The position numbers and the translations under genes were made by a program. Positions 946-64,000 of a stretch of 64,000 nt of DNA are shown here, in pieces; position 1 is the stretch's first letter, and every line of letters begins with the position of its first letter. The notes beneath the pieces were generated by a model, which searched no databases, was not told where the DNA came from, and saw only the letters and a list, made by a program, of their open reading frames with translations. The stretch is from an uncultured Selenomonadales bacterium (GTDB lineage: Bacteria > Bacillota > Negativicutes > Selenomonadales > Selenomonadaceae), in assembly GCA_946411735.1 (NCBI GenBank), contig CAMKFB010000002.1:572-64571 (forward strand), given 5' to 3'.

Positions 946-1566
946 ATGAGATGCGCGGCGGTAATATTGGCGGTGCTGGCGCTTATCGGAGCGATGATGA
1001 CGGTCGAGGCGGCTCCGCGCGGAGAGAAATACAAGGTGGCGGTGTGCAGCTTCGGCACGTTTCAGGAGATCGACATCGACAATTTGAAGGTCGAGGGCTC
1101 GGAGAAATCGCTATACTCGTTGGTGATTGACGGGCTGCTCGATACAAAAAAATTCTCGGCGTTCGAGCTCGATCGGGCGACGCTTGATGCGGCGGGTGTG
1201 AATTACACCGGCAAGATCACTCCGAGCGATGCAAAGAAGATCGGTGAGGTGCAGGGCGTGCGCTACATCATCTGCGGGAGCGTAAGGAATATCGCGCCGA
1301 TCGAAAGCGAATGCACGGTGCTATCGAACGGGCTGAAGGTTTTCTCGGTGCGGGCGCGCATTTCGTTGCAGATGATGGATGTGACGACCGGCAGGTATGT
1401 CAAGGGCGCGATCGGAGCGGGGACGTCGTCGAGTTCGCACGTGAGGGTCGGCAATGACATACACACGCTCAGCATCGGAACGACGAAGGTAGCGCAAACG
1501 AGCGTGGTGAACGCACTTTGGAAGGCGGCGCAAGACGCGACGAAAAGTCTTGCAGCGGAGTTGTAG
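946..1566 (+). CDS. Secreted CsgG/LpoB/FlgO-like envelope protein, paralog 2
   Basis: ATG follows GAGGTGA. Signal peptide MRCAAVILAVLALIGAMMTVEAAP. YKVAVCSFG..LVIDGLLDTKKFSAFE..VRYIICGSVRNI..ISLQMMDVTTGRYV has the same pattern as paralog 1. Confidence 0.6.
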   Translation: MRCAAVILAVLALIGAMMTVEAAPRGEKYKVAVCSFGTFQEIDIDNLKVEGSEKSLYSLVIDGLLDTKKFSAFELDRATLDAAGVNYTGKITPSDAKKIGEVQGVRYIICGSVRNIAPIESECTVLSNGLKVFSVRARISLQMMDVTTGRYVKGAIGAGTSSSSHVRVGNDIHTLSIGTTKVAQTSVVNALWKAAQDATKSLAAEL

Positions 1567-1595
1567 TCGGCGAAGAAATGATTGGAGGTGGTTGC

Positions 1596-2147
1596 ATGAG
1601 AAAAATATTATTGGCAACACTGTTGATGTTGTTGATGAGCGGTGCGGCATTGGCAATGGAAAAGCCGCGAGCAATCGTTATTACCCCTGAGGTTTCAGGA
1701 GGCGTCTGTGACTGCAGCGATTTGGGGCTGTTTCTTTCGACAACGGAATTTTTAACGGTTGCTCGAGATTTGACTGTGCAGGATGTGTTGGAGATTAACC
1801 AATTTGTTGTTTACGATTGCGATGTGGCATCGGAACAAAAATTGAGCTTCGATGAGTTTGTCAAGCAATACAACATTCAATACTTGATCAGGGTTGACGT
1901 AAGTTTTATAAAAGCCAACGTTTTTACCAAGAATGGTACTGACACTTGTGAACTGCAAGCAGGCGTAAATCTTTCTTTGATTGATATCGAAAGCCGCGAA
2001 ATTCTCTTCAGTACGAATACCGCGGGTAGCACCAAACGTAAGCATTCGGATGCGAGTTACGGAACAATAATTTTTGATGCAATTTCCGACGCGATTAAAA
2101 AGGCGACCATCGAGTTGTCAAGATACTGTGTGGCTAACTTTCCTTGA
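1596..2147 (+). CDS. Secreted CsgG/LpoB/FlgO-like envelope protein, paralog 3 (AT-rich, divergent)
   Basis: ATG 1596 follows GGAGGTGG. Signal peptide MRKILLATLLMLLMSGAALA. RAIVITPEV..IQYLIRVDVSFIK..VNLSLIDIESREILFS echoes paralogs 1 and 2. GC is markedly lower than in the flanks. Confidence 0.5.
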   Translation: MRKILLATLLMLLMSGAALAMEKPRAIVITPEVSGGVCDCSDLGLFLSTTEFLTVARDLTVQDVLEINQFVVYDCDVASEQKLSFDEFVKQYNIQYLIRVDVSFIKANVFTKNGTDTCELQAGVNLSLIDIESREILFSTNTAGSTKRKHSDASYGTIIFDAISDAIKKATIELSRYCVANFP

Positions 2148-2169
2148 TATCGAAAGGAGATGTTCTTCA

Positions 2170-2892
2170 ATGAAAAAGTTAATCGAACTCCTGCTGACGG
2201 CATTTCTGGCGCTTGTCGTCTTGGCGTCGAGCGAGGCAATCGCCGCTTATCAGAGGACGGCGGATAACACTGTACCGGCATATACCGATCGCAATCTCAG
2301 CAATCGGCAGGGCAACGAACGGGTTGATCGCGGCGACGTGGTGACGGTGTTCGAGGAGACGGACAATGCTTATTACGTCCGTTATCCGACTCCGCGCGGG
2401 ACGAAGGATCGTTGGGTGCCGAAGAATATTTTCAATGACAGCGGCTCTCAACCTTCAGGTGATGTGAGACAAAAATTGATGTACGCCGTATTTCGTAATG
2501 ATGGTGCACACATCACTTGTGATTTTGACGGATATCAGAATACGCGCGGCAGACATGAGGGAATTGATATGGTTCTTTCGCACAACGCTCCCGTCTATGC
2601 GGCAATCTCCGGCGTCGTGACGAGAGCCGGCGGCTCATTCAATACCGTTGCCATTTACGATCAGAACAATGATAAAACCGTCGTTTATCTGCACTTTAAT
2701 TCGGTAACGGTTCAACAGGGACAGTATGTTAATAAAGGTGATCACATCGGATATCAGGGAAGTAACGGAGCCTCCGCGTCTCATGTCCACATCGAAGTTC
2801 GTAACGGCAGACGTACGGCAGCCGCAAAAAGTGTAAACGATCCGACGTTGGACAATCCGAATCCTTATGATTATTGGAATAGAGTACTCTAA
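2170..2892 (+). CDS. Secreted SH3-domain / M23 (LytM-type) metallopeptidase
   Basis: ATG 2170 follows AAAGGAG. Signal peptide present. SH3-like segment DRGDVVTVFEETDNAYYVRYPTPRGTKDRWVPKNIF. M23 metal-ligand motifs HEGIDM and HVHIEV. Confidence 0.85.
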   Translation: MKKLIELLLTAFLALVVLASSEAIAAYQRTADNTVPAYTDRNLSNRQGNERVDRGDVVTVFEETDNAYYVRYPTPRGTKDRWVPKNIFNDSGSQPSGDVRQKLMYAVFRNDGAHITCDFDGYQNTRGRHEGIDMVLSHNAPVYAAISGVVTRAGGSFNTVAIYDQNNDKTVVYLHFNSVTVQQGQYVNKGDHIGYQGSNGASASHVHIEVRNGRRTAAAKSVNDPTLDNPNPYDYWNRVL

Positions 2893-2935
2893 GTAAACAT
2901 CCTAATAGAGTTTGTTTAGAGTGTTGATACAGACA

Positions 2936-2974
2936 GTCCTGCGGTGCTCAGCGCGCTCGCGGACATCGCAGGAC
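2936..2974 (+). other. Intra-operon stem-loop (possible processing or attenuation site)
   Basis: GTCCTGCG (2936-2943) pairs with CGCAGGAC (2967-2974). It lies in the only sizeable gap (116 nt) of the operon and is not followed by a proper U-run. Confidence 0.3.
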
Positions 2975-3008
2975 GCAATCTTTATCAATCGAGTGGAGGT
3001 AAAATACA

Positions 3009-4220: not shown

Positions 4221-4233
4221 ATGAGGTGTAATC

Positions 4234-5157: not shown

Positions 5158-8100
5158 ATGGCGACTATTAACAACAGCACATCGAATACAATTATATCCG
5201 GCACGTCGGACGATGATCTCATCTACAATGGCTCGTCAATGGTGTACAATGACCCGTCAATGGTGACGATCGATGCCGACGACGGCGACGACACCGTCCA
5301 CAACTACGGCGATTCGGTGACGATAGACACAGGTAATGGCAACGATTCCATCTTCAACACCAATAGCAATAATGTGCTGATCTCTTCCGGAGATGATAAT
5401 GATATAATCCACAACTATCGCGCTCCATTTACGACTATAGATGCGGGCGCGGGAAACGATTTCATCAGCAATAGCTATGGAAGTTCATTGTCGGCAATTG
5501 AGTTGGGAGATGGCAACGATACCGTCCACAACTATGGCGATTCGGTGACGATAGACACAGGTAATGGCAACGATTCCATCCACAACTCAAACGGCTCGAA
5601 CACGATGATAGACGCGCGAGCAGGTGACGACGAGATATATAATAGCGGCACACTGGTGACAATCTCTGCAGGAGACGGCAACGATTCCATCTTCAATGAC
5701 GATGGCTCGTCGGTAACAGTAGATTCTGGCGCAGGCAACGATTCCATCTACAATCGCTACAGCGATTCGGTGATGATCTTTGCGAGGATAGGCAACAATT
5801 ACGTCAATAATGACTATAGAAGTTCATTGTCGGCGATTAATGCGGGCGACGGCAACGATACCATTTATAATGGGGGATCATTAGTGACGATTAATACGGG
5901 CGATGGCGATGATTCCATCATCAACTTCTATGGCTCGAACGTGACAATCAATGCTGGCGACGGCGACGATTTCATCTACGACTACGGATCGTCTACGACA
6001 ATCAACGCGGGCGCTGATGACGATGTGATTAGTCTGGGCGCTGATGTGATTAGTCTTGATGGAAGCTCCGCACTGATCGTCTACAACGACGGTGACGGCA
6101 ATGATTCAATCTACAGTTACGACTCCAACACCGACACGCTCAATATCGCCGACGGGCTCTCGACCACTTCTGTTCAATCCGGCTCCGATATCATCATCAA
6201 CGTCGAAGGTTCGTCGAGCGGCTCGATCACTCTCGTTGACGTTGCCGACTCCGATACCACCGTCGCCCCCACGCCGACTGTCGAGCCCACGCCGACCGTT
6301 GAGTATCATGAAGGCTCCATCAACGCCGCACTCACACTCTCGGACGCGGACACTTCGACGGGCGTCTATGTGGTCGACGGCTCGGTGGAAATCGACAGCG
6401 GCACCGTGTACACGGCGACATTCGCGACTTCGACAGTCAGTACGGATATTGTCGTCGGCGACGTCGAAGAGTTGAACTATTTCGCGCGGAATGTCGGGAG
6501 GCAATCGATCGAAGTCTCCGGCGACAGTTGGAACGTCACCGCCACACAATTCGACGACAGCGTTGCTTGCTCAGGCGAAAACATCATAGTCAATGCCGGC
6601 GCCGGCAATGATGTGATCAATAACACCGGCGCATCCAATGAATTTCATACCGGCGACGGCGATGATTATGTTTACAATGCGGCTTATAGGGGACAAAGAC
6701 GCGGCTCATTGACTACCATCGAAACCGGCGAAGGCAATGATACGATTGACAGCGCCTGCTACGATGTGCTCATCAATGGCGGCAACGGCGGTGATTTGAT
6801 CTCCAATTACAGTTCAGCCGTTACGATCGATGCGGGCAGCGGCGATGATTACATTCTCAACTCCAAAGTGACGGGAGACGAAACGGTCAACGTACATTAC
6901 GGTCACAGATTTTATGGCGGTATCGGTTACAGAACCGGAGCCGAAGTCTCGATAGTCGGCGGCGACGGCAACGACACAATCGAGAATTACGGCGATGATG
7001 TGACGATTGATGCCTCGGGCGGCAACGATGTGATCACTCTCAACGAAGGCTCCGTGCGGATCGTTTATACGGACGGCGACGGTAACGATACCGTCTACGG
7101 TTTCGACTCCGACACAGTAACATTGGCGATCGCCGAAGGTCTCTCGACCACTTCCATTCAATCCGGCACCGATATGATCATCAACGTCGAAGGAGACTCC
7201 GTCGGTTCGCTCACTCTCAAGAATGTATACGCCGATATCGGAAGTATCAATGCTTACGTTGATCTCTCGATTGTGCGCAGCGGCAAAACCGGCTCATTCT
7301 TCGTCACGTCCTCCGACACCTTGAGCGACGGCAATGCCTATCACACTGCCCTCTTCCAAGCTGACGGCTCCGTCAATATCCCTGCCGACGCCGTCACTTA
7401 CAACAATCATTCTTACTATGTCTTCAACGATGTCAACACCGATTGGTACTCTGCGGAGGATTTTGCCGAATCGATCGGCGGTAACCTCGTCATCATCACT
7501 TCCGAAGGCGAACAAAATGTCGTCCAAGGCATGCTCGAATCTCTCGATGAAAGCGTTGCAAAAAATAATTATTGGATGGGAGCCACAATCGAGTCCACCG
7601 GCGAAATCGACGGCGTCAAACAATATAATTATCGCTGGGTCGACGGTACGCCCGTTGATGGAAATTCCTATACTCATTGGCAGCAGTACGGAAGACCGCA
7701 ACCCGATGGAGACAGCGGCTCCATTATGATGTACTATGCGGTTAATCCATATGCTACCAATTCACGGGGCGATTGGAATGATTTCTCGAGCAGTGGAGTA
7801 AACGGCGAATCTTTCTTCGGAATTGAAAACTTCGGAGCGATCGTCGAGTGGAATAATGAGCCGTCAACCGTTATCGGCACCGTCTCGAGCGATCACGTCT
7901 ACTCCGCCGTGTCGGATATCGGTAAGCAATCGATCACCGTTGCAAGCGATTGGTTCGTCACCGCCTCCGACCTCGACGACTCGATTCTGATCACCGGCGA
8001 CGCCTCTACCGTCGAACCCGGCAACGGCAATGATGTGATCTCCATCAACGGCGGCTCCGCGCGGATCGAGTATAAAGACGGCAACGGCGATGATACGATC

Positions 8101-9828
8101 TACGGCTTCTCCATCGATACCTCGACCTTGCAGTTTGCCGAGGGCTTATCAACCGATGCCGCGACGATCGGCAACGATATCGTGATCACCGCAACCGGCG
8201 ACTCCGTCGGCTCGATCACTCTCAAAGATGTCGTCGAACCTTCGACCGTCACCAATAAGATTGATCTCGTTTACATCGTCGACACCAGCGGCAGCATGGA
8301 TCAATACATCAACAAAATCAGAAACACCGCCGCGATTTTCGGAGACTACCTTACTGAACGGAACGTCGAGTTCAGGCTCGGGCTCGTCGAATACGATACG
8401 CGCGAATCCATCAGAAAATATGATTTCACCTCCGACATCAATACTTTCATCGGCAATGTGGATTACGTCCTCGGTAACAGCTTTGAGGACAATCAGGGCG
8501 CCGAATACGGTTTGAGTGCCATAACCGATCCCGATAACGGTGCGCTGTCTCTGAATTTCGATTCCGACGCCGATAAGTATTTTGTCGTCATCACCGACGA
8601 AGGCTATTGGGACAATAATTCAGACTCTGAGACTGTGATCGCTTCACTGCAGGCGGCGGACATTCAGCTCGACGTCATCGGCAGACTTCGTTCGAAGGCA
8701 CGATATATTCCCGGTTACGGATATCACACGGAAGATCTCGATTGTCAGCCGGAATGGGAGCCGATTGCCACGAGCACCGGCGGAGAATTTTATGATATTG
8801 ACGGTGATTATAATCGGGGGCTTCAAAAGATCGTTTCACCCACGACCGATGGTAAAACTGTCGTCATCAACCTCAGCCTTGCCGACAGCTCGACAAGCGG
8901 CTGCTTCGTGTTGGATGACGATTCGTCGAGGACCGCGGCATTCAAAACTGAAACTGTCGAGGGCGATACGATTGTCGGCTTTGTCAACGGCGATCACATC
9001 TACGAGGCTGCCGACGATTCGGCTCGACAGGAGATCAGGGTCACCTCCGATTGGAACGTCACTGCCACCGACAAAAAAGATGAAATAAAAATTTACGGTT
9101 CCGGCACGACAATCACCGGCGGCGGCGAAAAAGATTACATCACCATCAACAACGGAGTGTCGACCGTCACGCTCGCCGATCTTGATGTCGCCGAAGACGA
9201 TCTCACTTTCGTAAGCGGCATCACGCCCGGCGAGCTTGATTCCTCCGTCGAGAATGGGCAACTCGGTTTTTCTTCGACCGTCTTGTCTTTCGATATGTCC
9301 GATCAAAGCGCACTCACCTCCGACATCAAAAACTACACCGTCCACAACGGCGATAACGAACACACCATCGCCGATCTGCTTTACGGCACCGACACTCATC
9401 GCGTTTCGCTCTCGTTCATCAATTACGGCGCCAATCCCCGCCGAACTTATGTCACTAGCCTTGCCGACGTCGACGAGGGCTTTTTCGAGCTCACCGACGG
9501 CGACGGCAGCCGCTCGGTCTGGGGCGGCAATGACGGCGACGATACTCTCACCGGCACCGACGGCTATGACGAGTTCTTCTATCTTAAAACCAACGGCAAT
9601 GATGTGATCGAAAACGCCGGCGACAACGATCTGATCAATCTGCTAAACATCAGTCTCGAGGAGATTGATCTTGAAAGTTTCCCGTATGCGATCGGCGACG
9701 ACGCGACCACGATCAAGTTTAATGACGGCGGCTCGATCCGCGTCAACGGCACGTCGGAGGTCGGATTCAAGGTCGCCAATGTCGATTGCACGTTCTGCGT
9801 CAAGGATCGTCAGTGGGCGATAAAGTGA
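5158..9828 (+). CDS. Giant (1556 aa) RTX-like repeat / C-type lectin / vWA surface protein, no N-terminal signal peptide
   Basis: SD AAGGAGG 7 nt upstream. About 14 copies of an 18-20-aa x-G-x-G-N-D-x-I-x-N beta-roll-like repeat (about nt 5260-6060). A DGDGNDxxYxxDxxxDxLxxAxGLSTxxxxxGxDxxIxxxGxSxGSxTL module occurs 3 times. C-type lectin-like segment at about 7399-7855 (YYVF..WYSAEDFAESIGGNLVII..NYWMGA..YRWVDGT..WND..IVEW). vWA domain with MIDAS DTSGS at about 8260-8835. C-terminal RTX-type GGNDGDDTLTGTDGYDEFFY. Confidence 0.85.
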   Translation: MATINNSTSNTIISGTSDDDLIYNGSSMVYNDPSMVTIDADDGDDTVHNYGDSVTIDTGNGNDSIFNTNSNNVLISSGDDNDIIHNYRAPFTTIDAGAGNDFISNSYGSSLSAIELGDGNDTVHNYGDSVTIDTGNGNDSIHNSNGSNTMIDARAGDDEIYNSGTLVTISAGDGNDSIFNDDGSSVTVDSGAGNDSIYNRYSDSVMIFARIGNNYVNNDYRSSLSAINAGDGNDTIYNGGSLVTINTGDGDDSIINFYGSNVTINAGDGDDFIYDYGSSTTINAGADDDVISLGADVISLDGSSALIVYNDGDGNDSIYSYDSNTDTLNIADGLSTTSVQSGSDIIINVEGSSSGSITLVDVADSDTTVAPTPTVEPTPTVEYHEGSINAALTLSDADTSTGVYVVDGSVEIDSGTVYTATFATSTVSTDIVVGDVEELNYFARNVGRQSIEVSGDSWNVTATQFDDSVACSGENIIVNAGAGNDVINNTGASNEFHTGDGDDYVYNAAYRGQRRGSLTTIETGEGNDTIDSACYDVLINGGNGGDLISNYSSAVTIDAGSGDDYILNSKVTGDETVNVHYGHRFYGGIGYRTGAEVSIVGGDGNDTIENYGDDVTIDASGGNDVITLNEGSVRIVYTDGDGNDTVYGFDSDTVTLAIAEGLSTTSIQSGTDMIINVEGDSVGSLTLKNVYADIGSINAYVDLSIVRSGKTGSFFVTSSDTLSDGNAYHTALFQADGSVNIPADAVTYNNHSYYVFNDVNTDWYSAEDFAESIGGNLVIITSEGEQNVVQGMLESLDESVAKNNYWMGATIESTGEIDGVKQYNYRWVDGTPVDGNSYTHWQQYGRPQPDGDSGSIMMYYAVNPYATNSRGDWNDFSSSGVNGESFFGIENFGAIVEWNNEPSTVIGTVSSDHVYSAVSDIGKQSITVASDWFVTASDLDDSILITGDASTVEPGNGNDVISINGGSARIEYKDGNGDDTIYGFSIDTSTLQFAEGLSTDAATIGNDIVITATGDSVGSITLKDVVEPSTVTNKIDLVYIVDTSGSMDQYINKIRNTAAIFGDYLTERNVEFRLGLVEYDTRESIRKYDFTSDINTFIGNVDYVLGNSFEDNQGAEYGLSAITDPDNGALSLNFDSDADKYFVVITDEGYWDNNSDSETVIASLQAADIQLDVIGRLRSKARYIPGYGYHTEDLDCQPEWEPIATSTGGEFYDIDGDYNRGLQKIVSPTTDGKTVVINLSLADSSTSGCFVLDDDSSRTAAFKTETVEGDTIVGFVNGDHIYEAADDSARQEIRVTSDWNVTATDKKDEIKIYGSGTTITGGGEKDYITINNGVSTVTLADLDVAEDDLTFVSGITPGELDSSVENGQLGFSSTVLSFDMSDQSALTSDIKNYTVHNGDNEHTIADLLYGTDTHRVSLSFINYGANPRRTYVTSLADVDEGFFELTDGDGSRSVWGGNDGDDTLTGTDGYDEFFYLKTNGNDVIENAGDNDLINLLNISLEEIDLESFPYAIGDDATTIKFNDGGSIRVNGTSEVGFKVANVDCTFCVKDRQWAIK
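5293..5580 (+). repeat. 60-bp near-identical direct repeat inside the giant gene (5293-5352 and 5521-5580)
   Basis: accgtccacaacta[c/t]ggcgattcggtgacgatagacacaggtaatggcaacgattccatc occurs twice with 1 mismatch. The period is 228 bp, equal to four 19-aa repeat units. Confidence 0.9.
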
Positions 9829-9835
9829 GGTGCGG

Positions 9836-11986
9836 ATGATGTATAAAAAACGTTGGCTCAAAAAAAATCTGTCGGCGCTGATCGCCTGCGCCGGTCTGAT
9901 CACGTTTAATGTGCCGGGCTTTGCGGCAAGCGGCGCGTCCGATGTCGTGCATGGCGGCGGCGACGAGGAAAGTTCGGAGGATGTGACGGACAATACCGTA
10001 ATTGTTGAGTCCGGCTATGATGTTAAAGAAGTGATCGGCGGCGTATCGGCGGAAGGCGTTGTCAAGAACAATACGGTCGAGATCAACGGCGGATCGCTCG
10101 AAGGCGCGGTCGGCGGCGTGTCGGTCGTCAACAGCGAAGCGGGCAATGTCGCCGGCAATGTTGAAGGCAACAAAGTCATAATGCGCGGCGGCTCGGCGAA
10201 GTACATCTCGGGCGGTGAAGTCGGATATCTTTATCCGCGCGACGGCGACGAGACTCCCGACGTCACACAATCGAACTTTCAGGAGGGCGGCGAAGTCTCC
10301 TCTAATAAAGTCACGATCGAAGGCGGCAACGTCACCGGCGCGGTTGTCGGCGGCTCGGCTTTAACCGGCTCCGCGCGGAATAATTCCGTTGCGATCACCG
10401 GCGGCACGATCAGAGGACAAGTGATCGGCGGCATGGTTCGTTATTCGATCGAGCGATCGGAAGCGACCGGCAACACGATCACGATCGGCTTGGAAGACGA
10501 GGACAAAAGTTCGTCGATCGATTTGAGCAATGCCGAGCTGATCGGCGGCTGGCTGGGCGACGGCTCGGGCGGCTATTCTTACACCTCGGGCAACACGCTC
10601 AAGGTCACGAACGTCCATGATCTTGAGGTTCGGAGCATCAACGGTTTTGACAAGCTTGACTTCACGTTGCCGACGACGGGAGATGTGATGCTCAAAATCA
10701 CCGGCGGCGAAACGACGCTCGACGGCACGACGCTCAAGGTCGGCTCAAGCGGCGATAACGCTCGAGTGGAAACCGGATTGCAAGTCAATTTGATTCAGAA
10801 TGACAGCGGGCTCAGGTTGTCGAACATAAAATTGGAGGAACCTTTTATGGAAGGACACTCCATCGAACGCGAATTGGAGCTCATTACCGACGACGGTGAA
10901 ACGATCGCCGTCTTTAACAAAGATAACAAAGACGAGTTGGCGACGAGTGCGGCGCTCGACAGCGACGGTTTTTTGAGGACGAACGGTTTTCATGCGCGGG
11001 TCGGTGATATCATTAAGCTCAACGACAAAATAAACGAACTTACCAATAATGGCGACATCCTCGGTCATACCGCGCAGAATATAATTCAAAACGTCATCAA
11101 GGATTGGAAACCGCCCGAAGAAGAGTTCCGCGAGATTCAAGATGAAGATGTCGAAGTCAGCAATGAGATGAAGGTTTTTTCGGGCGGCAACGGCAGTGCG
11201 CTCCGAGTAAAGCTCAGCGACGGCGGGCACATTCGCAATAATGTTGTCGGGCTTGGGATCGGCGGCGCCAAAACTCTCGTCAACAAAGGAAACGGCAATC
11301 ATTTCAGCTTTGCGCCGCTCATCGATCACGGCAAGGGCAAGTTTGACACTTACACGGAGAACGGCAATCACGGCAAAGGCGATACACAGTTCAGCGGCGG
11401 AGGATTTATCGCGCGACGGATGCTCACCAACGGTTTTTATTACGAGGGCAGCCTGCATTACGGGCGCGCAAGGTCGTCCTTCGAGTCTAATGACTTCGAT
11501 CGCGATTCCAACGACAGCACGTATGATTCTTACGATATGTCGGCACCGATCATTGCGGGGCATATCAACATCGGCAAACTGTTTGCGATCAATCGCGAGA
11601 ACACCGTCCACGTCTACGGTCAATATTTGCACTCGCACCAGGGCTCGATGTCAACGCATCTTTTGAACGGCGATCATTACGAATTTGACAGCGTCAATGA
11701 CGGGACGTTTGTCGCGGGCATTCGCTTCATCAATCAGCCCAACAAGGTGAACAAGTTTTATTCGGGCTTCGCTTATCAGTACGATCACAGCAGCGGCTCG
11801 TCGGCGGTGCATAAGGGTCAACGGACGCATGAGGTCGATTCAAACGGCAGCAGCGGCATGTTCGAGCTCGGTTGGGAGATCAAACCGCACGCGGCAATCC
11901 CTTGGGTGGTCGATCTCGGAGCGGTCGGTTGGATCGGTCAGCAGAAGGGCTTGACGTTCCACGCGAAGGTTAAAAAATCTTTCTGA
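9836..11986 (+). CDS. Type Va autotransporter (beta-helical passenger + C-terminal beta-barrel)
   Basis: ATG 9836/9839 follows GTGAGGTG. Signal peptide ..[23 protein letters not shown]. Passenger has iterated N-x-V-x-I-x-GG-x-V-x-G-x-V-GG repeats. The C-terminal ~270 aa have alternating hydrophobics and end ..[12 protein letters not shown] (terminal Phe). Confidence 0.8.
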
Positions 11987-12013
11987 GCTCCGCGCGGAGC
12001 CGACAAGATTTTT

Positions 12014-12039
12014 GGAGCCGAGGAGGCTCCGTTTTTTTT
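12014..12039 (+). terminator. Rho-independent terminator after the autotransporter gene
   Basis: GGAGCC (12014-12019), loop GAGGA, GGCTCC (12025-12030), then G + T8 (12032-12039). Confidence 0.75.
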
Positions 12040-12042
12040 CGC

Positions 12043-13683: not shown

Positions 13684-14148
13684 ATGCCCAATATCATCGA
13701 AGGCAATATCACCGGTCGCGGGCTCAAGTTCGCGATCGTCGTGTCGAGATTCAACGAGTTCATCACGTCGAAACTGCTCGGCGGCGCGCTCGATATGCTC
13801 CGCCGTCACGAAACCAACGAGGATGATATCGACGTCATTTGGGTGCCGGGCGCATTCGAAATTCCGTTGCTCGCAAAAAAATTGGCATCGAGTAAAAAAT
13901 ACGACGCCGTCATTTGCTTGGGAGCGGTGATCCGAGGCTCGACCACGCATTACGATTATGTCTGCAACGAAGTATCGAAGGGGATCGCGACGGTCGGGCT
14001 GTCGACGGGCGTGCCGACCATCTTCGGCGTCGTCACCACCGAGAACATCGAACAGGCAATCGAGCGCGCGGGAACCAAGGCAGGCAATAAGGGAGCCGAC
14101 GCCGCCGTCAGCGCAATGGAGATGGCGAACCTCCTCAAATCGATCTGA
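13684..14148 (+). CDS. ribH: 6,7-dimethyl-8-ribityllumazine synthase
   Basis: ATG 13684. [53 protein letters not shown]. The ORF-track start 13594 overlaps the SOR gene. Confidence 0.95.
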
Positions 14149-14845
14149 CGGCAGTGATCGCAAACAACGGCACTCGATCGAAGTCAAGACTCTTATCCCG
14201 ATGCACGAGCGGCGCAATGTCCTCGTCGACCGTCACATCAAAGCCGAGCGCGCGAAGAACTTCAGCATCCCACGACGGACGGCGCCGCCGACTGATCTCC
14301 AGCGCCTCTTTGATCAGATTGCACTCGTCAAGCTGATTTTCCGTCACATCGCCGCGCGCACACGTCGTTACATCAAAAAAATTCTTGTCGCCGTAATCCG
14401 AATCAAAATTCATCAGCACGCCGCCGATCTTCAGCACCCGTCGCCACTCCCGATAAGCGCCCTCGACATCAGGCAGCGTCCACGTCAAATTGCGGCTGAT
14501 CACCGCGTCAAAACTTTCGTCGTCGAATTTCAAATCGTCCGCGCTCATCTCGAGCAGCCGCGCGCGACTATCGAACAACGTCAAATTTTGTTCGGCTTCC
14601 TTCAACATCTCCCTCGACAAGTCAATCCCCGTCACATCATGCCCGCGTCGAGACATCAGCACCGCGAAAAAGCCCGCGCCCGTCCCGACGTCGAGCACTT
14701 TATAAAAACTCCGCGCGGAGATTTTTTTTTCGATATAACTCAGCCAAGCATCGGCGTCCGCACTCTCGAGCTCCCGCCGTCGAACTCGACCGAAATCCTC
14801 ACTGCGCTTATCCCAATAATTTTTGATCCGATCCTCAATCGACAT
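14135..14845 (-). CDS. Class I SAM-dependent methyltransferase
   Basis: [28 protein letters not shown] (motif I) and [20 protein letters not shown] 14845 shares one base with the upstream TGA (TGATG). SD GGAGG. Confidence 0.8.
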
Positions 14846-15594
14846 CAATTCGCCTCCGTCGAAAATATTTCCGCTGCCAATAATTCTCGTGTCCACTCCG
14901 ATTGCGGGCGCTTGATCACGTCCTCGACCGCGCCCGTCTCCACGACTCGCCCGTCGTGCATCACCATCACTCGCTCGACCAATGTCGGCAGTATCGCAAG
15001 GTTGTGCGTGATGAACAGCAACGCGATCCCGCGCTCGACGCTCAATCGCCGCAAAAGCCCCGTCACTTGCGCCTGTACTTTGACGTCAAGCGCCGAGGTC
15101 GCCTCGTCGCATATCAATAGTTTCGGCTCCAACGCCAGCGCTCGCGCGATCGCCGCCCGCTGACATTGCCCGCCGCTTACCTCGTGCGGATATCGCTTCG
15201 CCAACTCGACCGGCAGCCCGACCGCCTTCAACAATTCTTCGACCCGCGCCTCAACATTCGGCATCGACCAACGACGCAACGGCTCACCGACGCTCCAGCC
15301 CAATGTCCGTCGCGGATTAAACGCCTCCTCCGGATTTTGAAAGATCATCTGCATCTTGCGATACACCGCGCGGAGCCGCACGCCCGTCAGGCGCGTGATG
15401 TCCTCGCCGTCGAATGTGATCGAGCCGCCGTCGGCATCGATCAGCCGCGCGATCAATTTGACCAGCGTCGACTTGCCGCAACCCGACCGCCCCACGATCC
15501 CAAGCCGCTCACCCGCGTCAAACTCAAAACTCACGCCGTCAAGCACCACGCGCCCGTCGAATATTTTTCTCAGTCCGTCGACCTTCAACATCAT
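14845..15594 (-). CDS. ABC transporter ATP-binding protein (NikE/OppF/DppF-like)
   Basis: Walker A GRSGCGKST, signature VSGGQCQR, Walker B LLICDEATSALD. ATG 15594 forms an ATGA overlap with the TPR gene stop. Alternative starts at 15615 and 15591. Confidence 0.9.
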   Translation of the reverse strand: MMLKVDGLRKIFDGRVVLDGVSFEFDAGERLGIVGRSGCGKSTLVKLIARLIDADGGSITFDGEDITRLTGVRLRAVYRKMQMIFQNPEEAFNPRRTLGWSVGEPLRRWSMPNVEARVEELLKAVGLPVELAKRYPHEVSGGQCQRAAIARALALEPKLLICDEATSALDVKVQAQVTGLLRRLSVERGIALLFITHNLAILPTLVERVMVMHDGRVVETGAVEDVIKRPQSEWTRELLAAEIFSTEAN

Positions 15595-16994: not shown

Positions 16995-17684
16995 TCAAGC
17001 GGCGACGGCGGCGCTGCTGTTTTGCACGACCAAAATTTTGTCGGCGATAAAATTGGCGACGCCCGGGTGGTGCGTGACGAGCACGATCGACAAGCCAAAG
17101 CGGCGTCGGAGGTTGAGCAGTTCCTTGACGACATCGGCTTGAGTGACGGTGTCGAGCGCGGAAGTAGGCTCGTCGGCGAGTAAAAGTTTCGGCTCGAGAA
17201 TGATTGCGGCCAGGATGCCGGCGCGTTGAGCCATGCCGCCGCTCAAGCGGAAAGGATATTCGTCGAGCACGCGCGAAGGGAGATTGATTTTGCTCATCAA
17301 CGCCTCCGCGCGGAGAGTGAATTGAGCGCGCGACCAATCGGTGTGTGCTCGGACAGCTTCGTAAATCTGATCGCCGATGGTTCGGATCGGGCAAAACGAC
17401 GCGACGGGATTTTGAAAGATCGTTGCGATCGAACTGCCGGCGAGTTGACGGCGTTGGCGGTCGTCGAGCGCGGTGATGTCGCGTCCGTCGAAAGTGATGG
17501 AGCCGCCGCTGATTCGACCGTTGTGCCCGAGCAGTCCGTTGATCGCCTTGAGCACGGTCGACTTGCCCGAGCCCGATTCGCCCACAATCGCAAGAATTTC
17601 GCCGCGCTCAAGATCGAAGCTGATATTCTCGATGACGGTTTGAACGCCGTAACTGACGGATAAATTTTTGATCGATAAAATCAT
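16995..17684 (-). CDS. ABC transporter ATP-binding protein (NikD/OppD/DppD-like)
   Basis: Walker A GESGSGKST, signature LSGGMAQR, Walker B LLLADEPTSALD. ATG 17684 follows AGAGAGG. Confidence 0.9.
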   Translation of the reverse strand: MILSIKNLSVSYGVQTVIENISFDLERGEILAIVGESGSGKSTVLKAINGLLGHNGRISGGSITFDGRDITALDDRQRRQLAGSSIATIFQNPVASFCPIRTIGDQIYEAVRAHTDWSRAQFTLRAEALMSKINLPSRVLDEYPFRLSGGMAQRAGILAAIILEPKLLLADEPTSALDTVTQADVVKELLNLRRRFGLSIVLVTHHPGVANFIADKILVVQNSSAAVAA

Positions 17685-53369: not shown

Positions 53370-54272
53370 ATGAGCGTCGGAATCAAAGATATGCGGGCGT
53401 TTTGCGCGGTCGTCGAGGAGGGCAATATCAGCCACGCCGCTCAGCGGCTCGACGTTGCTCAGCCCGTCCTCTCGAAACAAATCAAGCGGCTCGAGGAGGA
53501 GCTCGGCGTCAAGCTGTTCGATCGCGGCTCGCGCCACATCAGACTCACCGTCGCCGGTCGAGTTTTTTATACCCGCGTCGAAAAAATTCTCGGCTTCATC
53601 GACGGCACCGTTCGCGAAATGAGCGATATCGGCGCGGGCTCGAGCGGCTCAATTCGTATCGGCGCCATCACCACCTCCGGCGCGATGATTTTGCCCGAGC
53701 TCATCAATCGATTCCACCAACTTTATCCCGATGTCACGTTCGAGATTTGGGAGTCGGAGGGCGCGCGCATTCTCGAGATGCTCGACAGCCGTCAGCTCGA
53801 AATCGCCGTCACCCGCACGCAGGTCGACAACGAAACTTACAACTCGATCGTCCTGCCGCACGAGCCCTTCGTGATGCTGATGAATGAACACAATCCGATC
53901 GGCGCCGCCCCCGACGAAGTTCGACTTGCCGAGCTCGAGGGGCAATCGTTGATCATCCCGCTCCGTTGGAAGTCGATTTTCGTCAGCAATTGCAAGCGGC
54001 TTGGGTTCGAGCCGAAAATTTTTTGCGTCTCCGACAGCTTCATTCAAGGGCTGCTGATGGCGCGAATGAATTTGGGGATTGCGATGTTCCCAATGTCGTC
54101 GCAAGCGCTCTCGACCGAGGGCGGGCTCATATATAAGCGGCTGGTCGAGCCGGAAATGACCACGCACACCGTCATCAGCTGGCTCAAAGATCAATCGCTG
54201 TCGACGGCGTGTCAAAATTTCCTGCGCCTGTTTCGAGAGATGTTCGTCAACGGAAGGACTGATGCCGATTGA
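53370..54272 (+). CDS. LysR-family transcriptional regulator
   Basis: N-terminal wHTH MRAFCAVVEEGNISHAAQRLDVAQPVLSKQIKRLEEELGVKLFDR, plus a LysR substrate-binding domain. Confidence 0.9.
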   Translation: MSVGIKDMRAFCAVVEEGNISHAAQRLDVAQPVLSKQIKRLEEELGVKLFDRGSRHIRLTVAGRVFYTRVEKILGFIDGTVREMSDIGAGSSGSIRIGAITTSGAMILPELINRFHQLYPDVTFEIWESEGARILEMLDSRQLEIAVTRTQVDNETYNSIVLPHEPFVMLMNEHNPIGAAPDEVRLAELEGQSLIIPLRWKSIFVSNCKRLGFEPKIFCVSDSFIQGLLMARMNLGIAMFPMSSQALSTEGGLIYKRLVEPEMTTHTVISWLKDQSLSTACQNFLRLFREMFVNGRTDAD

Positions 54273-56353
54273 GACTCTACATCGCCGAAAAGCCGAGCAT
54301 GGGGCGCGAGATCGCCGCTTGCCTTGCCTCCCCGCACACCGTCAAGGGCAAAAGCTACATCGTCACCGGCGACGGCATTGTCACGTGGCTTTACGGGCAC
54401 GTTCTTCAACAGGATGAGCCCGAGGGCTATGACGAGCGCTATAAGCGTTGGGATGCCGCCGACTTGCCGATTATTCCTCGGGAGTGGAAGTTGCACGTCG
54501 ATAAGAACGCGGAGGCTCAGTTTGATGTGGTCAAGCGGCTGATCGGCAAGGCGGACGAGATTGTGCACGCGGGCGATCCCGATCGTGAGGGGCAATTGCT
54601 TGTCGATGAGGTTCTCGACTTCGTTGGCAATAAAAAGCCCGTCAAGCGGATTTTGCTCAACGCGCTCGACGAGCAGAGCATCAAACGCGCCAATGCCAAC
54701 CTTCGCGACAACGGCGAGTTTCTTAATCTGAAGCAGTCGGCGTTGGCGCGCTCGAGGGCTGATTGGTTGATCGGGATGAATTTGTCGCGCGCTTACACTC
54801 TTGCCGCGCGACGAGCCGGTCACAGAGATTTTGTGCTGCCGATCGGGCGGGTGAAAACGCCGACCTTGGGGCTGGTCGTTCGACGCGAGCGCGAGATTAA
54901 AAATTTCAAGCCCGTCGATTATTTTTTGATCCGCGCGGAGTTTTTGCATGCCAACGGCGCCTTCGTCGCTCAATGGAAGCCGTCGGAAAAATTTATGACG
55001 GAATTACATCCGAAGGCATTCGACTCCGAAAATCGGCTGATCGACAAAAAATTGGCGGAGGCGATGTTGAAACAATTTGAGGCGGCGCCGCACGACGGGA
55101 AAATCATTCTCTGTCAGACGAAGGAGAAAAAGGAGCCGGCGCCGTTGCCGTTTTCGCTGTCGGCGCTGCAGATCGCGGCGGGCAAACAATTCGGCTACGA
55201 GCCTCAACGCGTGCTCGACATAGCTCAAAAGCTCTACGAAAAAAAGCTGACGACTTATCCGCGCTCCGATTGCTCATTCCTGCCGACCAATCAATTCAAG
55301 GACGGCGCGAGGATACTGCGGAATTTCGAGGCGACGCCGGAGTTGCGTCATTTGATGTTGAAGGCGGACGCGTCGATTCGAAGTCGGGCGTGGAACGATA
55401 AAAAGATTACGGCGCATCACGCGATCATCCCGACGCTCAACTCGCTCAACCCCAAAACGGTCACGGCGGAGGAGCTCAACATTTATATGTTGGTGGCGCG
55501 GGGCTATGCGGCGCAATTCCATCAGCCGTTCGTGTACGACGAGACCAACGTCGAGGTGAAGTACAAAGAGGAAAAATTTGCGGCGCGCGGTCGAGTGGTG
55601 AAGGCGCTCGGTTGGAAGGAATTATATCCGACGAAGAAAAAGCCGTTCGCCGAAGACGAAGACGCCGAAGTTTTGTTGCCGGCGATGTCAAAGGGCGACG
55701 CGGTTGAGTACCAATCGGGGTCGATGCTCAAAAAAACGACCAAGCCGCCACCGCGCTTCACCGCCTCAAGTCTGGTGCAGGGAATGAAGGACATTCACAA
55801 GTACGTCAAAAATCCCGAGTCGAAGAAGCAACTCAAGGACGTGTACGGGATCGGGACGGAGGCAACGCGCGCGTCAATCATCGACGAGCTCATCACGCGG
55901 CAGTTTTTGAAGCCGCTCGGCAGAAAAAAGGAGCTCGAGCCGACGGAGCGGGCGTATCTGTTGATAGACATGTTGCCCGACGAAATGACTTATCCCGACG
56001 CGACGGCGATTTGGGAGGATAAGTTGCACTCGATGTCGGAGGGCGCGGGCACGCTCGAGGATTTTCTTGACGGGCAAGCGGAATTCACGCGGCGGCTGTG
56101 CTCGATGGCGAATGATGCGACGGCGAAGTTGGTCGGCGACGATAAAATTTTGTGTCCGAGGTGCGGGCGCGGGATCATGGTCAAGCGCAAAGGGCGCAAC
56201 GGAGAATTTTGGGGCTGCTCCGATTATCCGCGCTGTCGAATGACGTGCGACGATCGAGACGGCAAGCCCGCGTTTTTGAACCGAGTGTTCGACGACGAGG
56301 AGATCATTTCGTCGGCGGATTTTATCAACAATCAAAGGAGGAAATCATTATGA
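54269..56353 (+). CDS. topB: DNA topoisomerase III with C-terminal zinc ribbon
   Basis: MRLYIAEKPSMGREIA..VTWLYGHVL..RYKRWDAADLPIIP..VHAGDPDREGQLLVDEVLDF is close to the E. coli TopB N-terminus as I recall it. C-terminal CPRCGRG..WGCSDYPRC. The TTG start overlaps the LysR stop (TTGA). Confidence 0.9.
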   Translation: MRLYIAEKPSMGREIAACLASPHTVKGKSYIVTGDGIVTWLYGHVLQQDEPEGYDERYKRWDAADLPIIPREWKLHVDKNAEAQFDVVKRLIGKADEIVHAGDPDREGQLLVDEVLDFVGNKKPVKRILLNALDEQSIKRANANLRDNGEFLNLKQSALARSRADWLIGMNLSRAYTLAARRAGHRDFVLPIGRVKTPTLGLVVRREREIKNFKPVDYFLIRAEFLHANGAFVAQWKPSEKFMTELHPKAFDSENRLIDKKLAEAMLKQFEAAPHDGKIILCQTKEKKEPAPLPFSLSALQIAAGKQFGYEPQRVLDIAQKLYEKKLTTYPRSDCSFLPTNQFKDGARILRNFEATPELRHLMLKADASIRSRAWNDKKITAHHAIIPTLNSLNPKTVTAEELNIYMLVARGYAAQFHQPFVYDETNVEVKYKEEKFAARGRVVKALGWKELYPTKKKPFAEDEDAEVLLPAMSKGDAVEYQSGSMLKKTTKPPPRFTASSLVQGMKDIHKYVKNPESKKQLKDVYGIGTEATRASIIDELITRQFLKPLGRKKELEPTERAYLLIDMLPDEMTYPDATAIWEDKLHSMSEGAGTLEDFLDGQAEFTRRLCSMANDATAKLVGDDKILCPRCGRGIMVKRKGRNGEFWGCSDYPRCRMTCDDRDGKPAFLNRVFDDEEIISSADFINNQRRKSL

Positions 56354-57388: not shown

Positions 57389-57937
57389 TCAACGATTGAA
57401 GAACGGCGCCGAGCTGAGGTATTTCTGTCGGAGGATCAATTTCTGTTCGATCTTGCTGACAAATTCCTCCGCGCGGCGCAAATCTTCTTCGTCGGGATGG
57501 GTCGAGGCGCGCTCCCATCGCTTCACGCTGTCGACCGTGTTGTGCGGATCGTCCGCGCCCGCCGCTTTCCTCTTCTCGATCAGCTCGGGATCGACACGCC
57601 CTTGACAGTCAAACGTACCCAAAATGTCACAGCCCTTGCCCAGCAAATACGCCGCTCGCGCGAACGCCGTCACCACATGCTCCGAACCGTTCTCGACCCC
57701 ATGCGTCTCGAATAATACCACTCGAACGTTGCGCACCGTCGGCAGGAAATTTTTCATCACCGGATCGGGCGCCCCGCGCTTGAGCCAATAGCCCAGCGCC
57801 ACTATTTCATAGCCCTCGAGATTGGGCATGCTCTCGTCGATGTTGAACAGGTCGCCGCCCGACGCCCGCGCGATCGCCTCCGCCACCTGCCGCGTGTTGC
57901 CCGTCACCGACGTGTACGCTATCGCCCATTTGCTCAT
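57389..57937 (-). CDS. Flavodoxin-family protein
   Basis: MSKWAIAYTSVTGNTRQVAEAI.. FMN-binding loop T-x-T-G-N-T. Confidence 0.8.
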   Translation of the reverse strand: MSKWAIAYTSVTGNTRQVAEAIARASGGDLFNIDESMPNLEGYEIVALGYWLKRGAPDPVMKNFLPTVRNVRVVLFETHGVENGSEHVVTAFARAAYLLGKGCDILGTFDCQGRVDPELIEKRKAAGADDPHNTVDSVKRWERASTHPDEEDLRRAEEFVSKIEQKLILRQKYLSSAPFFNR

Positions 57938-60072: not shown

Positions 60073-60083
60073 CACCCGCGCCA

Positions 60084-60112: not shown

Positions 60113-60129
60113 TTCTCGATCGAAAATCG

Positions 60130-60158
60130 TTGACTAAATTGCAATCGATAAGTATAAT
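60130..60158 (+). promoter_or_regulatory. Consensus-like promoter of the TPS locus
   Basis: TTGACT (60130-60135), 17 nt, TATAAT (60153-60158). 5' UTR hairpin GCGGCG-CAACCAA-CGCCGC. Confidence 0.65.
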
Positions 60159-60215
60159 TTTTGGGCGGCGCAACCAACGCCGCTTAATCCGCAAAAAATT
60201 TTTGGAGGCTTAACT

Positions 60216-62296: not shown

Positions 62297-62320
62297 TGCC
62301 AATTCAATCCTTTCAATCAG

Positions 62321-62348
62321 CGCTCGAGTTTGTTTCGAGCGTTTTTTT
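62321..62348 (+). terminator. Rho-independent terminator after tpsB
   Basis: CGCTCGA (62321-62327), 7-nt loop, TCGAGCG (62335-62341), T7 (62342-62348). Confidence 0.7.
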
Positions 62349-62360
62349 ATTGCAGACGTA

Positions 62361-62369
62361 TGGTATAAT
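62361..62369 (+). promoter_or_regulatory. Extended -10 promoter element upstream of tpsA
   Basis: TGg-TATAAT (62361-62369). No good -35. Confidence 0.4.
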
Positions 62370-62399
62370 ATGACATAACACTTGAAAGGAACGATACTC

Positions 62400-64000
62400 A
62401 TGAGAATCGGCACCGTCAGAAAAATCCTCCTCGGGCTGACCGCTTTCAGCTTGTTCGTAACCCCCGCCCAAGCGTCCGAAATTACCGATCGGAACGGTGC
62501 TTCCTTGATCGATCCGACCGCCAACGTCCACAACCTCTACGCTCAACAGATCGACGGCACCACCGCCCGCAGCTCTTACGACAAATTTTCCCTCGACCAA
62601 AATCAGATTGCCAACATGCATTTCAATCAACGGGGCGGCACCACCTTCGCCACCGACCTTATCAACACCGTCAATCAGCGCATCGACATTAACGGCACCG
62701 TCAACGCCATCAGAAACGGCGCCATCGACGGCAACCTTTATTTCCTCTCGCCCGAGGGCATCGCCGTCGGTAAGACGGGCGTTATCAACGCGGGCGCTTT
62801 CATCGCGCAGTCCGAAGGCGGCTCCGTCGATATCAACGGCATCGTCAATGCTCGAAATAATATCACTCTCCAAGCTCAGAACATCACCCTCAACGGCGCG
62901 CAATTGACTTCGAATACCGATATCGACTTCACCACGCTCGTCAACGCAGGCACCACCGTCAATACCCTCGAAAATCTGTCGATGACTGCCGATCCGACAG
63001 GCAGCGGCGATATCATCATTGAGGCGAAGGCGACGCGCAACTTCACCGCCACGCCCGTGCTCAACGGCTCCGTCAGTCTGATGGCGATTGCCGTCAATGC
63101 CGGCATCAGCGACCTCGACAGCGCCTACGCTCAAAATCTCCTCAGTCAAGCCAAGAACTACTCATCGACCAAGCCCCTCGAAGTCTCTGCCAATATCGCC
63201 GATTCCATCATCACCGCCGACGGCGCCCTCACAATCAATACCGTCGAGCACATCGACGCCAACCTCGTCAACGGCACGCACAACACCGTCGGCGCCACCG
63301 TCATCGCCATCAATCATAACGCCAAGACCCTTATCGCCGGCTCCACCCTCAGCGGCTCATCCGTCGATATCGCCGCCCGTCAGGCAGGTAACATCAACTC
63401 CACCGTCAATCAGTCGGGCGCAGACGTCGCCGAGTTCGGCAGCAGTTTCAACTCCGTCAAACGAACGGGCGATACCGCCGTCAGCTTGCGCGGCTCATCC
63501 GTCACCGCCACCAACGGCAATCTCAACATCCGCGCGGAGGATAATCTTGCCGTCACGCTCAACAACCCCAATGATTTTTTCGCCACCCTCGGAATCCCCT
63601 CCACCGTCGTCAAGTCCATCAATGACTCCTCGACCCGCGTGATCATCAACAGATCCTCCGATTCCGCCAACAAATTGTCCGCTACAGGCGATATCAACGT
63701 CGACGCCGTTAACGACACCGCCGCCGACCTCACCGTCGCAAACGCCTTCATCACCACCATCAACGCCATCGATAACGCCGCCGCCAATATCACCATTCGG
63801 GATAACGGTCATTCTTTCAAGGGCAATAACATCAATTTCTCCACACGGTATAACCCCACCATCGCCGCGGCTTCATCGCCCTCGACCGCCAATCTCGGCG
63901 GCGACTCCGCCATCGAAGTCTCCAACGGCAATTACTTCAACGCCCACGTCGTCAATTTCGCCGCCACCTCGGGCGCAACCGCTCAAGCTCCCGACATCAT
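62400..64000 (+). CDS. TpsA exoprotein (filamentous-hemagglutinin-type, N-terminal TPS domain), 5' partial; runs off the window
   Basis: ATG 62400 follows AAAGGA. I translated the frame by hand to base 64000 and found no stop. Signal peptide ..LTAFSLFVTPAQA. TPS-domain-like ..SSYDKFSLDQNQIANMHFN..NGTVNA..LYFLSPEGIAVG... Then N/T/G/A-rich beta-helix repeats. Confidence 0.85.
   Translation, partial: MRIGTVRKILLGLTAFSLFVTPAQASEITDRNGASLIDPTANVHNLYAQQIDGTTARSSYDKFSLDQNQIANMHFNQRGGTTFATDLINTVNQRIDINGTVNAIRNGAIDGNLYFLSPEGIAVGKTGVINAGAFIAQSEGGSVDINGIVNARNNITLQAQNITLNGAQLTSNTDIDFTTLVNAGTTVNTLENLSMTADPTGSGDIIIEAKATRNFTATPVLNGSVSLMAIAVNAGISDLDSAYAQNLLSQAKNYSSTKPLEVSANIADSIITADGALTINTVEHIDANLVNGTHNTVGATVIAINHNAKTLIAGSTLSGSSVDIAARQAGNINSTVNQSGADVAEFGSSFNSVKRTGDTAVSLRGSSVTATNGNLNIRAEDNLAVTLNNPNDFFATLGIPSTVVKSINDSSTRVIINRSSDSANKLSATGDINVDAVNDTAADLTVANAFITTINAIDNAAANITIRDNGHSFKGNNINFSTRYNPTIAAASSPSTANLGGDSAIEVSNGNYFNAHVVNFAATSGATAQAPDI

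Follow-up and report, generated by a model that had tools for sequence, protein, structure and literature searches.

Why should a single 12-bp palindrome, CTCCGCGCGGAG, recur through the genes of a rumen bacterium, and what keeps it there? The question is raised by a window of 64 kb, the whole stretch of DNA analysed here, from a metagenome-assembled genome (MAG) of an uncultured rumen/gut-type member of the Selenomonadaceae. The G+C content is 52-58%, and the family placement comes from ProS homologues. A first-pass annotation of the window had counted 13 perfect copies of the palindrome, 15 copies with one mismatch and 23 perfect copies of the 10-mer TCCGCGCGGA; these counts and their coordinates are reproduced exactly. 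The answer that we tentatively favour, giving it a little less than an even chance, is that the word is a lineage-specific genomic self-tag of the kind represented by DNA uptake sequences (DUS) and the cyanobacterial highly iterated palindrome HIP1, linked to natural transformation.

The excess of the word is real and amounts to ~100-fold over expectation. Shuffles of the window that preserve dinucleotides yield 0.02 perfect 12-mers, 0.74 sites with at most one mismatch and 0.62 10-mers, against 13, 28 and 23 observed, and not one shuffle reached any of these counts. A comparison with Markov models, which the first-pass annotation had proposed as a check and which was made here on the window, leaves the excess standing at orders 3 to 5; the expected number of 12-mers is 0.027 at order 3, 0.07 at order 4 and 0.36 at order 5, the last value being already raised by the presence of the motif itself. 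The order-3 expectation for TCCGCGCGGA is 0.25, which gives an observed/expected ratio of ~93 and makes it by far the most over-represented 10-mer of the window. At the same order, 6.5 copies of the 8-mer CCGCGCGG are expected and 38 are found. The form CTCCGCGCGG, counted on both strands of the 64 kb, occurs 42 times vs 0.8 expected, and its A-variant adds 8 more, for a density of ~0.7-0.8 per kb. When the proteins and the codon usage of each gene were kept in synonymous-codon shuffles, 0.38 12-mers and 1.06 10-mers were expected in coding sequence, where 12 and 22 are observed. The earlier statement that GC-richness cannot close the gap is borne out by the shuffles, by Markov models of orders 0 to 5 and by the synonymous-codon shuffles. 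Across the whole window the copies keep a minimum gap of 344 nt and close pairs are lacking (P ~0.01); the coefficient of variation of the gaps is below random, not significantly so. No conserved extension beyond the 12 bases was found in the 30 bases around the copies.

Genes were called with a self-trained codon model, many were checked against Pfam and NCBIfam (~55 open reading frames, ORFs, scanned), and every copy was placed. Twelve of the 13 perfect copies lie inside genes, on both strands and in all three codon phases. In phase 0 the word reads LRAE, as in five copies: 17304..17315 in an ABC ATPase gene (16995-17684, minus strand), 31031..31042 in grpE (30893-31474, plus strand), 39992..40003 in a PilM/PilN-like gene (39752-40948, plus strand), 49737..49748 in the gene of an RTX-repeat protein (48729-50366, plus strand) and 52341..52352 in proS (50865-52565, plus strand). 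Phase 2 gives SARS, also five times: 14709..14720 in a class-I S-adenosylmethionine (SAM) methyltransferase gene (14135-14896, minus strand; Methyltransf_11), 18450..18461 in a solute-binding protein gene (SBP_bac_5; 17909-19456, minus strand), 27605..27616 in an NAD-binding dehydrogenase gene (26998-27873, minus strand), 36682..36693 in a B12-binding radical SAM gene (34785-37370, minus strand) and 45671..45682 in a radical SAM/DUF512 gene (44976-46325, plus strand). Two copies are read in phase 1 as APRG, at 1013..1024 in a CsgG-like gene (946-1566, plus strand) and at 32799..32810 in dnaK (31475-33331, plus strand), where the longer peptide is PAPRG. The remaining copy, 11988..11999, is intergenic; it begins 2 nt after the stop codon of the gene at 9830-11986 and forms the apex of a hairpin of -20.5 kcal/mol (11968-12019). 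These phases and the intergenic position had been given correctly in the first-pass annotation, as had the presence of copies in GrpE (31031), DnaK (32799) and ProS (50928 and 52341). The host genes are unrelated to one another and include grpE, dnaK, proS, topB, aroC and ABC transporter, radical SAM and RTX-like genes. Intergenic sites make up one of the 13 perfect copies and three of the 39 core sites, which matches the non-coding fraction of ~6%. The copies within genes have no special RNA folding, and no Rfam match that would indicate an RNA element was found in the window.

The choice of codons at these sites places the pressure at the level of DNA. LRAE is written CTC CGC GCG GAG in five of its six occurrences, for which codon usage predicts 4.7%, and SARS is written with the motif codons in five of five (~0.7% predicted). 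The peptides LRAE, SARS and APRG are themselves each ~10-fold more frequent than in amino-acid shuffles. The DnaK copy at 32799 sits in a peptide known as a conserved DnaK motif, so this copy was made by codon choice alone. The proposal that a pressure on DNA imposes these peptides on unrelated proteins is therefore backed by the codon shuffles, by codon choice, by peptide enrichment and by amino-acid replacements in ProS that are described below. A single repeated protein motif read in one frame, which the first-pass annotation had named as a possible refutation, is ruled out by the three phases, the two gene strands and the unrelated proteins.

The comparison with relatives covered loci around proS, labelled here with L-numbers, and the clade relations rest on a single-gene neighbour-joining tree of ProS. 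The motif is likewise enriched in three related species, represented by L001 and L002 (ProS 90% identical to that of the window, with 79% nucleotide identity to the window), L208 and L209 (91%) and L085 (87%), at G+C contents of 52-57%. Pooled over L001, L085 and L208, CTCCGCGCGG occurs 27 times vs 0.5 expected. The same sites recur partly at orthologous positions in these five independent assemblies, so the motif is not an assembly artefact. The 12-mer is absent from 80 proS-area loci of other Negativicutes and Firmicutes, with a single one-mismatch match in S. noxia (L027). Loci devoid of the motif include GC-matched Selenomonas, namely L017 (58% G+C), L027 (55%) and L028 (55%).

A second dialect of the word is found in a sister clade, whose loci adjoin the window clade in the ProS tree. 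L004, a buffalo-reticulum Selenomonadaceae MAG of 40% G+C with a ProS 79% identical to that of the window, has ATCTGCGCGG/CCGCGCAGAT 11 times in 21.7 kb vs 0.1 expected, five in one orientation and six in the other. Four further loci (L006, L007, L009, L010) each contain 8-13 copies of the 8-mer CCGCGCAG vs ~1 expected. The word of the sister clade occurs in sense and antisense and in several phases, with orientation counts of 16:15 in L004 and 61:43 in the pooled loci. The window clade uses the dialect CCGCGCGG(AG) and its sister uses CCGCGCAG(AT); the two cores are one transition apart, CTGCGCGG vs CCGCGCGG, and the change renders the core self-complementary. A low-GC subclade (L003, L083, L084, L086, L087) has no such motif, and no other dialect was found among L003 and L083-L087. 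We also note that L210 (ProS 80% identical, 53% G+C) shows a weaker enrichment of TCGCGCAG (14 vs 2.2) along with many CGCGC[AG]G sites, which could reflect either one more dialect, in degenerate form, or codon bias alone. In an unrelated viral contig from IMG/VR, L155 (65% G+C), three copies of CTCCGCGCGGAG(TC) and one near-copy lie within ~630 bp (9880-10511), with a fourth perfect copy at 276-287; the cluster has the look of an operator or repeat array of local extent, and the organism is a different one.

How sites come and go can be followed in proS, for which the first-pass annotation had suggested a comparison of orthologous codons. Run on ProS, the comparison gives a synonymous position that follows the dialect and a second position, 52341, at which amino acids have changed. 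At the first, the one-mismatch site 50928..50939 (CTCCGCGCGGGG), the peptide M-L-R-A-G is encoded as CTC CGC GCG GGG in the window clade and as CTC/TTC CGC GCA GGx in four of five motif-bearing members of the sister clade (L006 has TTT), so that the sister clade reads ..CGC GCA GG. here; outgroups use assorted codons. At the second, most relatives outside the clade have L(K/Q)xx, for example LKAA, in place of LRAE, and the site was thus created by amino-acid changes (K to R, A to E). The sites I-C-A-E and D-R-A-D in the ProS of L004 are likewise lineage-specific replacements. The codon alignment of ProS is free of indels at motif sites. Of ten sites compared between the window and L001, five or six are common and four are lineage-specific, the latter differing at 3-7 of 12 bases, transversions included. 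The proS site 52341 is conserved in L001 and the one-mismatch site 46989..47000 is identical there. The copy at 45671 reads TTCCGCGCGGAG in L001, the position orthologous to 49737 has no copy, the one-mismatch site 46187..46198 is absent, and the topB site 54929..54940, imperfect in the window, is a perfect CTCCGCGCGGAG. Copies arise by substitution and not by insertion, through many substitution types. Gains that take several substitutions, including transversions, do not fit a repair bias with a single transition.

The first-pass annotation treated palindromy as the defining property and as setting the word apart from uptake sequences. Two results do not support this view. Among copies of the 8-mer CCGCGCGG, the presence of CT.. 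is statistically independent of that of ..AG, with a maximal-order expectation of 14.0 12-mers vs 13 observed; and the word of the sister clade is not palindromic, at a similar density and in both orientations. The 12-mer therefore consists of two overlapping oriented 10-mers and is not a specially selected palindrome. The unit is thus an oriented ~10-mer, [C/A]TCCGCGCGG, whose 8-bp core CCGCGCGG is palindromic in the clade of the window. Independent flanks also fit orientation-independent units better than a palindrome selected by a dimer. The core positions are sharp, one-mismatch core variants being at background (~13 observed vs ~12 expected), and the two outer positions are graded. Mismatches do fall mainly on the outermost bases, as the annotation had noted: 10 of 15 are at position 1 or 12 and four at position 2 or 11. 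Among the variants in the window the commonest is ATCCGCGCGG (8 vs 0.7 expected), which differs from the word of L004 by one base.

Several of these properties are those of a self-tag linked to transformation: the length of the word, its ~100-fold enrichment at ~0.7 per kb, its independence of orientation, the preferred peptides within genes and the dialects one base apart. For DUS and uptake signal sequences (USS), the excess is in the same range, far above that of Chi, and the densities are similar. In the proposed mechanism, a sequence-specific step in natural transformation would favour fragments that carry the word; candidates for this step are the binding or import of DNA by a type IV pilus/competence apparatus and an event that comes directly after import. 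With such fragments taken up preferentially and integrated by homologous recombination, the word would multiply along the chromosome by molecular drive, perhaps aided by selection, and would enter genes where protein function tolerates it, through both synonymous and amino-acid-changing substitutions. As the recognising protein drifts, the word would drift along with it to give clade-specific dialects. In the window clade, two units of opposite orientation would overlap across the palindromic core to produce CTCCGCGCGGAG.

A type IV pilus mini-operon (38761..41733, plus strand), reported here as genomic context and not as a demonstrated partner of the motif, counts in favour of the self-tag through its pilus genes and two prepilin-like ORFs. 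The first of these ORFs (38761-39342, plus strand) has the signal RGFILAE and the second lies at 39339-39755; PilM/N (39752-40948) and PilO (41155-41733) follow. The ORF at 38761-39342, considered as a candidate receptor, is fast-evolving, lies upstream of pilMNO and has only 7 detectable homologues, at 55-100% identity. In its AlphaFold model (predicted local distance difference test score, pLDDT, 79) a beta-sheet comes after a long N-terminal helix, an arrangement compatible with a pilin. The operon is compatible with a role in DNA uptake.

A number of results weigh against the self-tag. The pilin-like ORFs have no Pfam match, and therefore no ComP_DUS, and the AlphaFold model of 38761-39342 gives no significant match in the PDB. 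No comEA, comEC or dprA was found in the 64 kb. No association of the word with terminators or inverted pairs was found, its intergenic share not rising above the non-coding fraction. A pure drive model predicts a cloud of near-matches, as is seen in Haemophilus influenzae, and the sharp core is more typical of recognition of the methyltransferase or nuclease kind. All motif-bearing sequence obtained lies in or near one syntenic region. When unlinked loci were sought, a metagenome scan with CTCCGCGCGGAGAT returned GC-rich chance matches, homologues of an accessory thiamine pyrophosphate (TPP) enzyme (query from L208) came from other lineages, and a viral-contig scan with GGCTCCGCGCGGAG gave only GC-rich chance matches among the matches listed.

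The self-tag can be set beside three known kinds of word. The DUS of Neisseriaceae are words of 10-12 nt, highly over-represented at ~1 per kb, that lie in both orientations within genes and in several frames; their dialects in related genera are one or two bases apart and their outer positions are less conserved than the core, all as in the window. In contrast to DUS, the word of the window is unrelated in sequence, lacks a CTG core and belongs to a diderm Firmicute (Negativicutes), its core is palindromic, it shows no preference for terminators or inverted pairs, a search of the window detected no ComP homologue, and its uptake is proposed by analogy. The USS of Pasteurellaceae share the hyper-abundance, the preferred peptides imposed where proteins tolerate them and the clade-specific subtypes, and in L004 an A/T-rich tract comes after the word and recalls the flanks of USS; they differ from the present word in sequence and host phylum, in its lack of a terminator bias and in its lack of an excess of core one-mismatch variants. 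HIP1 (GCGATCGC) is, like the present word, a palindromic GC-rich word found through coding DNA in all frames, with partly conserved orthologous sites and frequent symmetric extension past the 8-mer, and it is now suspected of a part in transformation. It differs in sequence and phylum and in being phylum-wide, whereas the present word is narrow (genus or family level); here palindromy is not conserved across the clade, and no associated methyltransferase was found in the window.

HIP1 has been reported to raise transformation efficiency and has been proposed as an uptake signal, so the HIP1 analogy drawn in the first-pass annotation and the uptake reading converge. The analogy was reasonable; the accompanying remark that the word is less like uptake sequences does not stand, as DUS and USS dialects are at least as similar. 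A 2025 survey knows DNA uptake enhancing sequences (DUES) only from Neisseriaceae and Pasteurellaceae, where about half sit in terminators. The annotation had not recognised the motif from the literature, and indeed its strings were found in no bacterial-genomics paper; nor was a relevant paper found on DNA uptake sequences in Selenomonas or Negativicutes. It is possible, with a chance somewhat short of even, that uncultured rumen Selenomonadaceae own an uptake-signal system, the first beyond Neisseriaceae and Pasteurellaceae save for the HIP1 proposal, in which a 10-nt tag evolved from the asymmetric ATCTGCGCGG to the self-complementary CTCCGCGCGGAG by a single core transition.

The strongest rival, which we consider rather unlikely, is an iterated palindrome of the HIP1 type that plays no part in DNA uptake and is kept in place by a methyltransferase, by biased mismatch repair or by both. 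An orphan or restriction-modification enzyme would read GCGC, CGCG or the 8-mer, and repair of the very-short-patch (VSP) type or selection on methylation would turn near-matches into matches. The perfectly palindromic core of the window clade suits such an enzyme, as does the sharpness of this core, the lack of an excess of one-mismatch core variants being typical of enzyme specificity. Sites follow the coding share and show no terminator bias, as HIP1 sites do, and GCGC is at 2-3.7 times the base-composition expectation in motif-bearing clades and at ~0.8 in L003, a sister that lacks the motif. Because the core is sharp and terminators are not favoured, a HIP-like mechanism of methylation or repair stays in contention. 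Set against these points are the non-palindromic word of the sister clade and the gains that need several substitutions, transversions among them, and not one transition class. A word of 10-12 specified bases lies beyond the specificities of known methyltransferases, and VSP-type bias gives modest enrichments only. Even for HIP1, current work favours transformation. The search for a cognate methyltransferase, restriction or repair gene that the annotation had suggested was made in the window only, over the ~55 ORFs, and returned no DNA methyltransferase, restriction or Vsr gene; the sole methyltransferase, 14135-14896, is of the small-molecule type. Modification genes do lie beside proS in some relatives, with an MmeI-family enzyme in the motif-bearing L085 (2688-5501) and N6/N4 methyltransferases in the motif-less L083 (800-2395) and L084 (5529-8304), but they show no evident connection with the motif.

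A less probable explanation, and one that we regard as improbable, is that an abundant chromosomal protein, whether nucleoid-associated, involved in segregation or occlusion, or loading condensin, binds the word on the resident chromosome. A palindromic word in the window clade, a fairly even spacing that lacks close pairs and the conservation of some orthologous sites would all be expected of such a protein. Yet parS, Noc, SlmA and MatP use tens of sites per genome rather than about one every 1.5-5 kb; a symmetric dimer site sits badly with a sister dialect that is not palindromic and with flanks that are independent; and sites turn over fast between species.

A signal of the Chi type, read by AddAB/RecBCD to mark self DNA and to stimulate recombinational repair, is very unlikely. 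Like Chi, the motif is a short, GC-rich, over-represented and clade-specific word with a GCGG-like element, its core GCGCGG resembling the Chi of Firmicutes (AGCGG, GAAGCGG, GCGCGTG), and of the two mechanisms that have been put forward for HIP1, one resembles Chi. Chi sequences, however, are asymmetric words of 5-8 nt, are enriched only a few-fold and are strongly co-oriented with replication, whereas the present word has 10-12 nt, is ~100-fold enriched and is palindromic or unskewed. The asymmetric sister form is little skewed, and its commoner sense orientation is the C-rich CCGCGCAG, not the one ending in GCGG.

A by-product of GC/CpG-rich codon usage, of a repeated protein motif or of a dispersed repeat deserves almost no credence: CGC and GCG codons and GCGC are common in the genome and some sites stand on conserved peptides (PAPRG of DnaK, MLRAG of ProS), but the observed counts exceed by 30-500-fold what Markov models of orders 3 to 5 and synonymous-codon shuffles yield, and GC-matched relatives lack the motif. 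The shuffles, the Markov models of orders 0 to 5 and the codon shuffles rule out chance, GC content and codon bias. A dispersed repeat of the repetitive extragenic palindromic (REP) type or of the miniature inverted-repeat transposable element (MITE) type is likewise ruled out: flanks are not conserved, 12 of the 13 copies are in genes and the motif codons align gap-free to their orthologues.

Recognition of self by sequence tags during natural transformation has been established in just two proteobacterial families, and whether it exists more widely is a long-standing question of the competence field. A case in Firmicutes would bring together close relatives in three natural states, with the palindromic dialect, with the asymmetric one and with no motif at all, and this series would make testable how tags arise and change, which protein reads them and whether the molecular-drive model holds. 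If the self-tag is true, natural transformation in the rumen would be biased by species, and the dialect series, with its motif-less clade, would serve to find the receptor by phylogenetic profiling. Such a tag would further suggest that homologous gene exchange is frequent within these abundant uncultured bacteria of the rumen. Possible uses are as a marker for binning and contig assignment and as a candidate element for better genetic transformation of Selenomonadaceae.

The one-mismatch sites other than 50928 are distributed over the window as follows. The form CTCCGCGCGGAT occurs at 8055..8066 in an RTX-like gene (5158-9828, plus strand), at 46187 in the radical SAM/DUF512 gene (plus strand) and at 53056..53067 in a thiD-like gene (52565-53365, plus strand). 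The form CTCCGCGCGGAA is found at 10369..10380 in the gene at 9830-11986 (plus strand) and twice in the radical SAM gene 34785-37370 (minus strand), at 34851..34862 and 35195..35206. Four sites read ATCCGCGCGGAG: 21093..21104 in an ABC permease gene (20786-21595, minus strand), 46989 in the gene at 46392-47201 (plus strand), 54929 in topB (54269-56353, plus strand) and 63528..63539 in the gene at 62382-63998 (plus strand). The others are CACCGCGCGGAG at 15364..15375 in an ABC ATPase gene (14845-15615, minus strand), CTCAGCGCGGAG at 29503..29514 in putP (29239-30837, plus strand), which has the sole mismatch in the core, CTCCGCGCGGTG at 42146..42157 in aroC (41699-42790, plus strand) and CTCCGCGCGGCG at 57467..57478 in a flavodoxin gene (57389-57937, minus strand). 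The core CCGCGCGG with weaker flanks is present at 2390..2401 (CTCCGCGCGGGA) and at ten other sites (16644, 19505, 19694, 21931, 22610, 22880, 26006, 34136, 39084 and 47352), two of which lie outside genes, namely 19505 (CCCCGCGCGGGG, terminator-like) and 22610.

The window contains further repeated elements. A GC-rich intergenic repeat of ~130-170 bp is found at 34650-34785 and 37400-37560, with an inverted copy at 41030-41115 and fragments near 17846-17866 and 22545. It carries GGGTGGGA/TCCCACCC boxes (8 vs 0.5 expected), has internal complementarity and no Rfam match, and looks REP-like or like a small RNA, unrelated to the 12-mer. An A5T5 palindrome, AAAAATTTTT, and similar words made of A/T tracts show a 6-12-fold enrichment and lie mostly between genes (e.g. 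17836, 17869, 19519, 40983, 41018, 60194); L004, L006, L083 and L084 also have them, and their range is the whole family clade, relatives with no GC-rich motif included. A stretch of 300 nt is present as two exact direct copies (49931-50230 and 50458-50757; 527 nt apart, 100% identity) that cover the 3' portion of the RTX-like gene as well as sequence upstream of proS; either a tandem duplication of recent date or an error of assembly could account for it. Finally, the gene at 27943-29157 (minus strand) encodes an unusual fusion of a DEDD/RNase_T exonuclease with TerD and a C-terminal ribbon-helix-helix.

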